From positions 425 through 64,424 of the forward strand of contig JABDKO010000027.1 in NCBI GenBank assembly GCA_013002165.1: a DNA stretch of 64,000 nt, read 5' to 3'. A program made the translations under genes and the position numbers. Positions 36,146-44,233 of the stretch are shown here, one piece after another (position 1 is the first letter of the stretch; every line of letters begins with the position of its first letter). The stretch comes from Rhodothermales bacterium. GTDB taxonomy: Bacteria > Bacteroidota > Rhodothermia > Rhodothermales > JABDKH01. The notes below the pieces were generated by a model, which was not told the DNA's origin, searched no databases, and saw nothing but the letters and a program-made list of their open reading frames with translations.

Positions 36146-36979
36146 CTACCGTACAATGATCCTCTTTATTCGCCGTGCAAGCTCTCGCAGGGTCCAGATC
36201 AGACTATAGCGTGTCCGCATGAACCAATTCGGCGCTGGCGGGTCGATCATTATTTCGCGGCACCACTCTTCCATCAGGTCCCGGGAGGCGTCCCCAGCCA
36301 CTTGCCGACAATAGCTTTCTACCGATGTATCAATGAAATACTGTTGGAGAGCGCTTCGGTAGTCTTCTTTCGAACTCAACTCGCCTACAAACACTGACCA
36401 TTGGGTTTCGTGCTCCCAGAAAGACTCAAAGCGAGTCTGTTGATACGGCGATCCGTCAACAAGAATAGTCGCCCAGTCATTTCTATTCAATGCACCCATT
36501 CGACCCGATCCGGGAAAAAATGCGTTGAAAGAATAGAGGACGACACCCACTTTCGACGCAGCATTTTTGGTCATCCGATGCATGAGTACGTGGGCCGGAT
36601 GTCCGTAATCGCCGGTTGAACCATGAGTCAAGACCACGTCGGGATCAAACTTGTTGATCTGCACCGCGATGTCGTGTTCCAGCCTGGCTGCATCATGATC
36701 AGGTGCGCGCAGGCGCGATCCGTCTGGAGCAGGATCTGTATATTCGAGAAACACCAGGCTTTCAACGCCGAGTACTTCAGCAGCCCGCGCCATCTCCCGT
36801 TCCCTGACCGCTGGCAACGTTTCACGGGTTGCTTTTGGCGGTACTCCTATCTGCCCGCCTTCACCACGCGTCAAACAAACGATATGCAGTGGAACTCCTT
36901 TTGACGAGAGATGAGCAAGCAGCCCCGAACAAAATATTTCGTCATCTGGATGAGCAATGACCAGCAGCAGTCCTGCCAT
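36146..36979 (-). CDS. PIG-L / LmbE-family N-acetylglucosaminyl deacetylase
   Basis: Start ATG 36979 gives MAGLLLVIAHPDDEIFCSG (AHPDDE motif), then ...THGSTGDYGHPAHV (HPxH). The ORF-track start 37123 overlaps the upstream GT gene. Confidence 0.85.
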   Translation of the reverse strand: MAGLLLVIAHPDDEIFCSGLLAHLSSKGVPLHIVCLTRGEGGQIGVPPKATRETLPAVREREMARAAEVLGVESLVFLEYTDPAPDGSRLRAPDHDAARLEHDIAVQINKFDPDVVLTHGSTGDYGHPAHVLMHRMTKNAASKVGVVLYSFNAFFPGSGRMGALNRNDWATILVDGSPYQQTRFESFWEHETQWSVFVGELSSKEDYRSALQQYFIDTSVESYCRQVAGDASRDLMEEWCREIMIDPPAPNWFMRTRYSLIWTLRELARRIKRIIVR

Positions 36980-36984
36980 GGTAC

Positions 36985-38055
36985 CTATCGCGAATTGTAT
37001 ATTTGAATTAGCCGTTCGAGAATTGCATCCCACGAACCTGTCGGTACAACATAGCCATTCTGCCCCTCGACAACATTTTCTTTTGCACCCGTATCCTCTG
37101 AAAGTATGACTGGAACACCACAATAGAGGGCCTCCACCGGGGCATATCCATAGCCATCATGATATGGTGGATGGACGTAGCAATCTGCATGCTGCAACAG
37201 CGGCAGCGAATCCTCTTCGACAATCTTCAACCGGGGTTCTTTTGCAGCCCATTCTTCAATGTAGCGAAGCATTCCACGGGATAGCGGGGCTCCGATAAGG
37301 ATCAGTTCCGCATCACGGATGTCAAGTCTTGAGAATGCCTCGAGCAGCAAGTGTGTGCCCATGGTCACCGTAAGATCACCGGAATAGATGACACGAAATG
37401 TCTCGTCCCGGCGGGTTTCCTCTGACGGTACAAATCTGGGATTGATCTTGAGGTATGTGCGCACGAGTTTTGATTCGTCGAAGCCACGGTCGATGAACGT
37501 CTGTCGGGCATACTCAGAGGGCACATAAATTCTGTCAGCGATCTCATACTCGCGAAGCTGCTTCTTGATCATCCGAGGATCAAGTACTGACCTTTCAATC
37601 GGCCATCGTGTGTGCGCCTCACGGTAGCGCTCTGCAGCATATTCTATGTGGGCCGCAGTCGAGTGTAGCTCAAGCGTTTCAAAACCAATCTTCCGGGCGC
37701 GTGTGGCTGCGTGGAAAAATTGTCCAGAAAACCCGGCGAAGGTTTCAGTTCGATTCGTCAAACGTCGTGCCACCGTCCTGTCAAACAGATCTTCTGATGC
37801 ATACCGTTGCAGACCCGCCGAAAACCGCAACGGGTTCTTGACCAGCCAGCCGGTGAGGGCCTGATCTACTTGCGAAGCGACTAATTCATCATCCGGATGA
37901 ATTCCAGTCGACATGTACGTCTGAAGTTCATCAAGAGCACGTGTTTCTTCTACAATCTGCGCAAAATGGGCTCCCATTCCGCCAAGATTGTATGGCGCAT
38001 TACAGGCAAGGGTTTTCATGATTCGCGAATGGCTTAAAGTATAAATTTCGACCAA
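36985..38055 (-). CDS. Glycosyltransferase, GT4 (GT-B fold) family
   Basis: The C-terminal block PPYHDGYGYAPVEALYCGVPVILSEDTGAKENVVEGQNGYVV is the E-x7-E region of retaining GT4 enzymes. A possible alternative start is ATG 38019. Confidence 0.75.
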   Translation of the reverse strand: MVEIYTLSHSRIMKTLACNAPYNLGGMGAHFAQIVEETRALDELQTYMSTGIHPDDELVASQVDQALTGWLVKNPLRFSAGLQRYASEDLFDRTVARRLTNRTETFAGFSGQFFHAATRARKIGFETLELHSTAAHIEYAAERYREAHTRWPIERSVLDPRMIKKQLREYEIADRIYVPSEYARQTFIDRGFDESKLVRTYLKINPRFVPSEETRRDETFRVIYSGDLTVTMGTHLLLEAFSRLDIRDAELILIGAPLSRGMLRYIEEWAAKEPRLKIVEEDSLPLLQHADCYVHPPYHDGYGYAPVEALYCGVPVILSEDTGAKENVVEGQNGYVVPTGSWDAILERLIQIYNSR

Positions 38056-43378: not shown

Positions 43379-43872
43379 TCTTGAATAGCCTGCACGGCCG
43401 AAATTGAATATGAGATCTCGTCATCTACTGCATCCTTAATGTAGTCGATAGAGACCGATGTTGGAAATCCCCTCTGCCTGTCGTACGTGACTTCGATTTC
43501 GTCTGCTTCACCGCCCGTTGCTTCCCGAATGATATCAAACAATTTCTCGATTGACGGAATGAAAGCCAGCTGCTGCGAAGAAATATCGACGTTATCTCGT
43601 AGTCGGATAGCCGCAGATACGGAATCGTCGAGAACGGTAACCCTTGCAGGCGTGTCGCCCGCGATTGTACAGAAGCAACCGATGGTTATTTCATACCTGT
43701 AGTGGTCGAGCCCTTGTGAGAGCCACAGTTCTCTACTGGTCTGAAACGTATCGTTCCCATCGCCGAACAGATTGCAGCCCGATAGCCCGATGACTACGCT
43801 ACAGACCAGGAGTATATCTTTAATCACTCTCAAAACGTGTTTCCAATGATTCAATTCGTTGGACCAGATCAT
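43375..43872 (-). CDS. Hypothetical lipoprotein (CFC-motif)
   Basis: Lipobox VVIGLSGC, and the mature part contains YRYEITIGCFC. The start is uncertain. It could be ATG 43872, or GTG 43827 (MIKDILLVCSVVIGLSGC), which overlaps the upstream stop by 8 nt. The ORF-track start is 43959. The stop overlaps the DPP-IV start by 4 nt. Confidence 0.5.
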   Translation of the reverse strand: MIWSNELNHWKHVLRVIKDILLVCSVVIGLSGCNLFGDGNDTFQTSRELWLSQGLDHYRYEITIGCFCTIAGDTPARVTVLDDSVSAAIRLRDNVDISSQQLAFIPSIEKLFDIIREATGGEADEIEVTYDRQRGFPTSVSIDYIKDAVDDEISYSISAVQAIQE

Positions 43873-44233
43873 GCGGTACGATGGCAGGATTGGAATCTCT
43901 GACGACACATAGTATTGAGTGGGCCAGCCGGGCACTGGTTTTACTTCCGTCAAGATCACCCATGTCCCCGAGAATATTTGCGCGCTCTCTCAACATCGTG
44001 GAAAGGCTCACGGCAAACTCGACGTCGATTCCTGCTTCACCAGATAGATAGTCCTGTAACTCCGATCGTGAATAGGTCAGCATTCGTTTGATATCTACTT
44101 CGCCGTTGGCGCTAACAGCACGATCAATTTCCTCAATCGCCTCGTCATACTGATTCGTGTTGCGGTGGAGCATGGCACGGGCCAGCGCCTGGGCCAGCTG
44201 CCGAACCTGTCTCATGATAACGTCTCGCTCCAT
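43820..44233 (-). CDS. Hypothetical cytoplasmic helical protein
   Basis: 137-aa ORF, first gene of the co-directional block. The N-terminus DVIMRQVRQLAQALARAML resembles a family of uncharacterised helical proteins. No motif found. Confidence 0.5.
   Translation of the reverse strand: MERDVIMRQVRQLAQALARAMLHRNTNQYDEAIEEIDRAVSANGEVDIKRMLTYSRSELQDYLSGEAGIDVEFAVSLSTMLRERANILGDMGDLDGSKTSARLAHSILCVVRDSNPAIVPHDLVQRIESLETRFESD

Follow-up and report, generated by a model that had tools for sequence, protein, structure and literature searches.

Gene content and boundaries of the string

On the minus strand of a 64,000-nucleotide stretch of contig JABDKO010000027.1 from Rhodothermales bacterium (hereafter the window, meaning this entire stretch), six open reading frames (ORFs) follow one another between positions 36146 and 44233. 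In the direction of transcription they encode a small protein, a DUF6174 lipoprotein, a dipeptidyl peptidase IV (DPP-IV), a trifunctional fusion of a kinase, an M23 peptidase and a pyridoxal phosphate (PLP) enzyme, a GT4 family glycosyltransferase and a PIG-L family deacetylase. The initial annotation of this DNA had described six minus-strand genes with these coordinates and families, and the ORF list together with Pfam and NCBIfam searches bears out both.

The first gene (43820..44233) encodes a 137-aa protein that has no signal peptide and whose Pfam matches, TPR/DUF6483-like and weak, all lie below the cut-off. It shares 40% identity with its positional counterpart in a related Rhodothermales contig (locus L001), and the corresponding gene of a second such contig (L003) encodes 134 aa. 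The DUF6174 lipoprotein (43375..43827; PF19671, 113 bits against a cut-off of 23.8) comprises 150 aa when read from GTG 43827 and carries the lipobox MIKDILLVCSVVIGLSGC (LSGC); this start agrees with the length of its relatives, 146-152 aa. We found no literature on DUF6174. The third gene (41090..43378) encodes a 762-aa secreted DPP-IV of family S9B, with DPPIV_N and Peptidase_S9 domains scoring 303 and 150 bits in Pfam. Inspection of the translation revealed an N-terminal signal peptide, MKARLATLAVLILVSSLPVFG, and the motifs GWSGGG (the nucleophile), GTGDDNVH and RSHGI. The protein has the beta-propeller, S9 catalytic domain, GxSxGG nucleophile and secretion signal of S9B enzymes and shares 77-79% identity with its counterparts in L001 and L003. 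The fourth and longest gene (38067..41093) encodes the fusion protein of 1005-1008 aa, in which Pfam recognizes APH, Peptidase_M23 and Aminotran_3 domains and NCBIfam the family PRK06148. The last two genes encode a retaining glycosyltransferase of the GT4 family (36985..38019; 344 aa from ATG 38019; Glycos_transf_1, PF00534, 80 bits against a cut-off of 26.4) and a 277-aa de-N-acetylase of the PIG-L/LmbE family (36146..36979; PF02585, 103 bits against a cut-off of 28.2), whose translation contains the metal motifs VIAHPDDE (AHPDDE) and GHPAH (HPAH).

The string is bounded on both sides by genes of the opposite strand. At its 5' end a divergent ORF (44289..44768, plus strand) would encode a 159-aa multi-pass membrane protein without Pfam match. 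It is conserved in L001, with 42% identity over 148 aa (E 1e-28) to positions 6335-6775 on the opposite strand, and probably represents a genuine small membrane protein that annotation has missed, transcribed divergently from the six-gene string; in L001, too, the counterpart was not called as a gene. About 55 nt separate this gene from the start of the string, which leaves room for a shared promoter region. At the 3' end lies a convergent tandem-Usp gene (35180..36136, plus strand), whose stop is 9 nt from that of the PIG-L gene and which is also found downstream in L001, L003 and a further relative, L084. The GC content of the six genes, overall and at third codon positions (GC3), matches that of the neighbouring genes, and these two measures give no compositional sign of a recent transfer.

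Junctions, packing and transcription signals

The junctions are short. The genes for the small protein and the lipoprotein overlap by 8 nt (GTGATTAA) given the GTG 43827 start, the lipoprotein and DPP-IV genes by 4 nt (ATGA), and the DPP-IV and fusion genes by 4 nt (GTGA) if the fusion starts at GTG 41093; the deposited 1005-aa fusion model (P0001) implies GTG 41084 and would instead leave a 5-nt gap after the DPP-IV gene. The GT4 and PIG-L genes are 5 nt apart. All these junctions had been read in the same way in the initial annotation, but its gap of 11 nt between fusion and GT4 genes would require translation to begin at the TTG at 38055. A start at ATG 38019 (MKTLAC...) agrees with the deposited 344-aa protein (P0115, 100% identical) and with all relatives, and we therefore consider a gap of 47 nt more likely.

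Such packing had been taken to imply co-transcription. This is plausible, as the junctions are short, a pattern scan revealed no convincing terminator inside the six-gene block, and divergent and convergent genes delimit it. The packing itself, however, is ordinary here: of the 38 co-directional gene pairs that the window contains outside the block, 15 overlap and 23 show gaps no longer than 50 nt, figures in which the extension of ORFs to their maximum length biases gaps towards short values and somewhat exaggerates overlaps. Unrelated DUF4340 and rhodanese genes are packed equally tightly onto the adjacent his operon. Tight packing is thus the local norm, says little on shared function and should not be used in this genome as evidence of a shared pathway. 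Pattern scans for sigma-70 promoters and intrinsic terminators returned the same counts as shuffled sequences, and an Rfam scan of positions 35900-45000 gave no match. A near-consensus promoter at 38233-38206 (11 of 12 matches) was dropped, as it falls within a coding region and relatives do not preserve its -35 box.

The spacer between the fusion and GT4 genes contains a conserved 19-nt element, TGGTCGAAATTTATACTTT (38036..38054, minus strand), with 11 invariant positions among five clade members whose spacers measure 47-50 nt, although the flanking codons diverge. This pattern of conservation suggests that the element may be an internal promoter or translation signal for the GT4 and PIG-L genes, which travelled with the pair or evolved for it. 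It includes a TAnnTTT-like box but no TTTG at the right distance, and a Bacteroidota-type promoter was accordingly kept as a possibility only.

Domains and family of the fusion protein

Each of the three domains of the fusion was compared with its homologues in a 16-sequence alignment. The kinase (APH) domain spans residues 35-258 (40320..40991; PF01636, 61 bits against a cut-off of 23.2) and retains intact HNDLNDxN and IDFGD motifs, D206, N211, D223, G225 and D226 being invariant. The M23 domain (residues 435-532, 39498..39791; Pfam Peptidase_M23) aligns to solved M23 peptidases and keeps the HxxxD, YGH and HLH motifs; H433, D437, H523 and H525 are invariant and H487 nearly so. The PLP domain (residues 601-997, 38103..39293; Pfam Aminotran_3, phospho-lyase subgroup) has an invariant PLP lysine, K841, within GKPIGNGHP. 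Given that the catalytic residues are invariant or nearly so in 16 divergent homologues, all three domains look active.

In searches of the PDB the PLP domain scored 469 bits with human ethanolamine-phosphate phospho-lyase (ETNPPL, 6tor) and 344 bits with an Arthrobacter phospholyase (5g4i), all other entries reaching at most 208 bits. By these scores it is assigned to the phospho-lyase branch (ETNPPL/PHYKPL) and not to the true aminotransferases. The kinase domain obtained only weak PDB matches, the best with homoserine kinase II (E 0.003), which are uninformative as to its substrate. It shows the APH fold of the hydroxylysine kinase HYKK/AGPHD1, with intact catalytic loop and metal motif. 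What points to 5-hydroxy-L-lysine as its putative substrate is the genomic association of the family with L-piperideine-6-carboxylate (P6C) dehydrogenase described below.

Against NCBIfam NF004799 (PRK06148) the fusion scores 1111.8 bits (curated cut-off 1128, E = 0), with residues 9-1000 aligned to model positions 10-1010 of 1015, and the order APH-M23-Aminotran_3 is common to more than 100 of its homologues. Bifunctional kinase-phospholyase proteins without the M23 domain, only about 750-790 aa long, were also recovered (L079 10001-12357, L082 10001-12298, P0079-P0104). They occur alongside trifunctional proteins, for instance in a further Rhodothermales metagenome-assembled genome (MAG), and their PLP domains are 54-58% identical to that of the window, closer than those of most trifunctional homologues. 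Full-length fusions with 39-41% identity are also present in Asgard archaeal MAGs (L015, Thorarchaeota CP070658, 10001-13024, and L024), which suggests horizontal transfer or binning contamination.

Genomic context of the fusion across phyla

The family is widespread. A scan of species-representative genomes with the 16-sequence alignment as query yielded at least 594 confirmed stretches, from which 80 fusion loci were examined. These belong to at least ten phyla and include Acidobacteriota, Gemmatimonadota, Bacteroidota, Planctomycetota, Chloroflexota, Actinomycetota, Alpha-, Gamma- and 'Delta'-proteobacteria and Asgard MAGs. Neighbour clustering found no family recurring within 6 kb of the fusion in more than 7 of 83 loci, and in most members of the family the fusion is essentially a stand-alone gene.

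Where informative neighbours occur, they are of a consistent kind. A P6C dehydrogenase is encoded upstream of the fusion in L037, at a distance of 84 nt, and in L047, at about 1.5 kb (scores of 776 and 781 against an NCBIfam cut-off of 730). A 4-hydroxyproline epimerase scores above its cut-off in L053 and L064, in company with DHDPS-like genes, and in L053 a Pyr2C/Pip2C reductase, also above cut-off, lies directly upstream of the fusion. OCD-like and trans-3-hydroxyproline-dehydratase-like genes, both below cut-off, occupy this position in L014 and L018. Peptidase genes were found as well: the fusion stands between a DPP-IV and an S9 peptidase gene in a member of the Longimicrobiales (L077), the same S9 peptidase gene follows it in L036, and in another Rhodothermales locus (L004) a galactokinase gene, a DHDPS-like gene and the fusion are followed by an Xaa-Pro peptidase-like M24 gene. 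An Xaa-Pro peptidase is also encoded near the fusion in L053. Altogether, neighbours of the peptidase, hydroxyproline or P6C type were present at 9 of 80 fusion loci, in five phyla, and at none of 85 GT4 loci used as control (0.76 Mb). This signal is a minority one, yet it follows a common theme, since collagen is characterised by hydroxylysine, hydroxyproline and X-Pro bonds. Since P6C dehydrogenase takes the product expected from phosphohydroxylysine, its presence supports a hydroxylysine-directed role for the fusion. Two further aldehyde dehydrogenases were discounted, that of L061, a succinate-semialdehyde dehydrogenase left out of the tally, and that of L053, which is not of the P6C type.

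None of the 80 loci outside the Rhodothermales clade described below encodes the GT4, the PIG-L protein, the DUF6174 lipoprotein or the small protein near the fusion, as judged by tblastn with the six window proteins. Even the Rhodothermales locus L004 is without GT4 and PIG-L. The proposal of the initial annotation that the GT4/PIG-L pair works in one pathway with DPP-IV and the fusion therefore finds no backing beyond one syntenic clade.

Both Rhodothermales lineages have a galactokinase-like GHMP kinase gene in the vicinity of the fusion (window 31362-32657, plus strand; L004 7635-8975); in L004 it immediately precedes the DHDPS-like gene, which is followed by the fusion. As the hydroxylysine of collagen bears galactose, the proximity may have a meaning, or it may be a remnant of synteny.

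Conservation of the gene order within Rhodothermales

The closest fusion homologues, in L001 and L003 (49-51% identity), are embedded in the same six genes in identical order. In two other contigs, L084 and L091, the GT4 is 62-65% identical to that of the window and the fusion again lies upstream of it. The 5-nt GT4-PIG-L spacer and the roughly 47-nt fusion-GT4 spacer are kept in every clade member seen. The upstream flank, consisting of the his operon, DUF4340 and rhodanese genes, is also syntenic in L001 and L003, the only contigs that reach far enough upstream to show it. The proteins of the six genes and those of the flank are alike in their identity to relatives, about 40-79% for the former and 41-79% for the latter. 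The conserved order is best described, from these comparisons, as lineage-level synteny rather than independent recurrence. Gene-neighbourhood conservation, which had been put forward as a check on the linkage, thus holds among related Rhodothermales contigs and breaks up outside their clade.

These contigs differ in some details around the string. A carbamoyltransferase (Carbam_trans_N/C) and SxtJ pair (window 32863-35077, plus strand) is also present in L003 and L084 and missing from the otherwise syntenic L001, while a GFO_IDH_MocA/GH109-like gene is present in L001, L003 and L084 and missing from the window. In L084 (303-2978) the fusion is split into several called ORFs in a 3x long-read contig, most likely through assembly frameshifts rather than as a true pseudogene.

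The GT4-PIG-L pair

The adjacency of a GT4 and a PIG-L gene recalls the enzymes that open the bacillithiol and mycothiol pathways, and orthology to BshA/BshB had been named as a finding that would make the adjacency to the fusion coincidental. No such orthology emerged. The GT4 scored 35.1 with BshA (TIGR03999, cut-off 273.7) and 19.5 with MshA (TIGR03449, cut-off 462.5). The PIG-L protein, whose best NCBIfam model is BshB2 and best PDB match MshB (52 bits), scored 78.2 with BshB2 (TIGR04000, cut-off 195.25), 44.5 with BshB1 (TIGR04001, cut-off 182.5) and 59.9 with MshB (TIGR03445, cut-off 224.35). An assignment as BshA/BshB or MshA/MshB was rejected, all scores being far below the equivalog cut-offs. 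An AlphaFold2 model of the GT4 (pLDDT 93.7) has the GT-B fold and matches many GT4 structures in Foldseek with E-values of about 1e-12 to 1e-13, MshA and BshA at the top. These cannot be separated from WaaG, GlgM, HepE and PglA, so that the structure defines a generic GT4 fold only and is uninformative as to donor or acceptor.

The GT4 has many full-length homologues with 36-50% identity. Those of Salinibacter sp. 10B and Leptolyngbya NIES-3755 (43-44% identity) lie in exopolysaccharide (EPS) or O-antigen loci, together with several glycosyltransferases, sulfotransferases, Wzz, Poly_export and an ABC exporter, and without PIG-L. A metagenome scan added 80 GT4 loci, among which the fusion was found near the GT4 in L091 alone, a member of the syntenic clade. 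None of the GT4 homologues of at most 52% identity has the fusion or a DPP-IV gene nearby (0 of 85 GT4 loci outside the clade). A GT4 gene followed by a PIG-L gene was encountered in three contexts without the fusion, with GT4 identities of 48-52%. On a metagenome contig (L087, 73-7358) the order is GT47 (exostosin)-like, GT4, PIG-L, two sulfotransferases and a second GT4; in L088 the pair is isolated and its upstream gene lies on the opposite strand (the short contig L092 shares its upstream sequence); and in L094 it follows a GH1 glycosidase gene. A PIG-L homologue of Salinibacter ruber likewise lies among sulfotransferase, glycosyltransferase and transposase genes. The gene order in L087 recalls the logic of heparan-sulfate biosynthesis, i.e., transfer, N-deacetylation and sulfation, and sulfotransferase genes are comparably abundant in the Salinibacter loci L085 and L089.

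As the pair occurs without the fusion in three contexts and its homologues reside in polysaccharide loci, we regard GT4-PIG-L, on comparative grounds, as an older two-gene unit that stands on its own and whose wider family takes part in glycan synthesis. A modular, lineage-specific juxtaposition, and not Bsh orthology, is then what makes its adjacency to the fusion look coincidental. Annotating the pair as BshA/BshB, or as belonging to a route for peptides or hydroxylysine, should accordingly be avoided.

A proposed composite gene string

We favour, with a probability of roughly 0.55, the reading that the string is a composite, in which DPP-IV and the fusion serve the breakdown of collagen-type peptides and hydroxylysine beside an independent GT4-PIG-L module. 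The first module would run from the small protein through the DUF6174 lipoprotein and the secreted DPP-IV to the cytoplasmic fusion. In the periplasm DPP-IV, possibly with the lipoprotein, would cut X-Pro dipeptides from proline-rich oligopeptides of the collagen or gelatin type. After uptake, the APH domain of the fusion would phosphorylate the 5-hydroxyl of the collagen-specific 5-hydroxylysine and the PLP domain would eliminate phosphate and ammonia to give 2-aminoadipate semialdehyde; the M23 domain, catalytically intact by motif, may first free hydroxylysine from a short peptide. The second, mobile module would transfer an N-acetyl-hexosamine and then de-N-acetylate it for a glycan or glycoconjugate, and would owe its place behind the fusion to a rearrangement specific to one lineage of Rhodothermales. 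The six genes are probably transcribed together to a large extent from the short divergent promoter region upstream of 44233. GT4-PIG-L would then possibly be read through from upstream, and its own start signal may persist in the conserved 47-nt spacer. Of the catabolic route for collagen-like, hydroxylysine-containing peptides put forward in the initial annotation, this retains the part played by DPP-IV and the fusion, for which 9 of 80 neighbourhoods speak, and drops the part assigned to GT4 and PIG-L.

Several observations weigh against this composite reading. About 70 of the 80 fusion loci lack an informative neighbour, and the control set is small. The 64-kb window itself contains neither a P6C dehydrogenase nor a hydroxyproline-catabolic gene. 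The solved enzymes closest to the PLP domain act on phosphoethanolamine, hydroxylysine being a proposed substrate, and the actinobacterial RMM microcompartment loci for amino-2-propanol or aminoacetone pair a phosphotransferase with a class-III aminotransferase homologue (PMC4207490). The element in the fusion-GT4 spacer fits neither sigma-70 nor a clean Bacteroidota-type promoter geometry. Finally, the six-gene order persists at about 40-79% protein identity, a range in which unselected gene adjacency often decays, and the arrangement as a whole may confer some selective advantage.

The string might instead be a plain synteny block, in which DPP-IV and the fusion are neighbours by coincidence and the fusion degrades another phospho-amino-alcohol, derived from ethanolamine or 1-amino-2-propanol, without any link to peptides. 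The tight junctions typical of this genome, the equally tight attachment of DUF4340 and rhodanese genes to the his operon, the lack of a conserved neighbour at most fusion loci and the phosphoethanolamine phospho-lyases as nearest solved structures would all suit this view. We nevertheless hold it to be rather unlikely, because the fusion stands independently beside S9/DPP-IV genes (L077, L036), Xaa-Pro peptidase genes (L004, L053), hydroxyproline enzymes (L053, L064, L014, L018) and P6C dehydrogenase (L037, L047) in five phyla and never in the controls, and because the compound expected to arise from phosphohydroxylysine is precisely the substrate of P6C dehydrogenase. Conversely, all six genes could form one novel pathway, either for the breakdown of glycosylated-hydroxylysine peptides, with GT4 and PIG-L acting on the sugar part, or for an amino-sugar conjugate built on a hydroxylysine-derived acceptor. 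The order and both spacers kept throughout the clade, the failure to find a terminator inside the block and the galactokinase-like gene near the fusion in both Rhodothermales lineages lend this some appeal. It is improbable all the same: the linkage is missing outside one syntenic clade and already in the Rhodothermales locus L004, GT4-PIG-L is autonomous elsewhere, GT4 enzymes are transferases and not hydrolases, and the Glc-Gal glycans of collagen hydroxylysine offer PIG-L no N-acetyl sugar (PMC8626586). That GT4 and PIG-L catalyse the two opening steps of a bacillithiol- or mycothiol-type thiol pathway and stand beside catabolic genes by chance seems very improbable. BshB2 and MshB do head the matches of PIG-L, as MshA and BshA head those of the GT4 model, but every score is far below its curated cut-off, the Foldseek E-values of MshA and BshA are no better than those of WaaG, GlgM, HepE and PglA, and the homologues belong to polysaccharide loci that also encode sulfotransferases, Wzz and ABC exporters.

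Within the composite reading, a more specific and rather speculative version can be formulated for the fusion. It would be a self-contained, three-step hydroxylysine salvage enzyme, in which M23 releases hydroxylysine from the short, collagen-derived peptides left by proline-specific peptidases such as DPP-IV, and kinase and phospho-lyase convert it to aminoadipate semialdehyde. An extension of this version, in which GT4 and PIG-L have been recruited to the same regulon in the Rhodothermales clade, is less likely still. We found no literature on bacterial hydroxylysine catabolism, and to our knowledge no bacterial pathway of hydroxylysine breakdown has been described so far. If the version is correct, an M23 peptidase would for the first time have a metabolic role in the cytoplasm, and a hydroxylysine pathway would for the first time be defined in bacteria. 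Already on the composite reading, a widespread, biochemically uncharacterised trifunctional enzyme would break down hydroxylysine in bacteria of many marine and soil phyla, which would give a testable handle on the mineralisation of animal collagen by environmental bacteria and on the cytoplasmic role of M23.

Other features of the window

The window is rich in peptidase genes, encoding M48-TPR (2662-4833), M20 (9235-10413), M1 (14742-16664), M61 glycyl aminopeptidase with a PDZ domain (53441-55279) and M16 (60377-63259) proteins, and it also encodes a protein with a sorting domain of the type IX secretion system (T9SS; 56892-57932); this content is consistent with a proteolytic lifestyle. Four consecutive minus-strand ORFs of 197, 474, 490 and 438 aa (19146-23773) gave no Pfam match at E <= 1e-5. 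They adjoin the genes for a multicopper oxidase (17426-19192) and a DUF411 protein.

Comparison with known systems

The vertebrate hydroxylysine kinase HYKK/AGPHD1, the 5-phosphohydroxy-L-lysine phospho-lyase PHYKPL/AGXT2L2 and the phosphoethanolamine phospho-lyase were found by comparative genomics, according to two later articles (PMC5714238, PMC8154272, citing Veiga-da-Cunha 2012). Like the vertebrate pair HYKK and PHYKPL, the fusion combines an APH-fold kinase with a phospho-lyase of the class-III-aminotransferase fold, its PLP domain being closest to the sister enzyme ETNPPL, and the expected product, aminoadipate semialdehyde, fits the P6C dehydrogenase encoded beside its homologues. Unlike that pair, the fusion holds both predicted activities in one chain of about 1000 aa, with M23 between them.

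Hydroxyproline clusters of bacteria (4-Hyp epimerase, DHDPS-like deaminase, KGSA dehydrogenase, Pyr2C reductase/T3LHyp dehydratase) share with the proposed first module the catabolism of collagen-specific amino acids, and their genes lie near the fusion in L053, L064, L014, L018 and L004; none of them is present in the six-gene block or in the rest of the 64-kb window. The actinobacterial RMM pairs, which work by kinase/lyase chemistry, resemble the fusion in joining a kinase and a PLP enzyme for a vicinal amino alcohol. They differ in that their genes are separate and lack an M23 domain, and shell proteins, short-chain dehydrogenase and GntR regulator are absent here. The second module shares with BshA/BshB, MshA/MshB and the paromamine-type pairs the adjacency of GT4 and PIG-L genes, the GT-B fold and the logic of N-acetylhexosamine transfer followed by de-N-acetylation, but its relatives reside in sulfated-glycan and EPS loci, not in thiol or aminoglycoside clusters.

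The nearest known system is the PRK06148/PRK06149 group of kinase-(M23)-aminotransferase fusions, which we take to be the bacterial homologues called 'bi- or tri-functional' in the 2012 paper. That study reportedly started from such bacterial bi- or tri-functional kinase-lyase proteins and connected them with hydroxylysine. The window fusion has the three-domain architecture and the full-length match of this widespread family. It falls 16 bits under the PRK06148 cut-off and is embedded in a string running from DPP-IV to GT4-PIG-L, while most members stand alone. The trifunctional family is already known and not specific to this locus.

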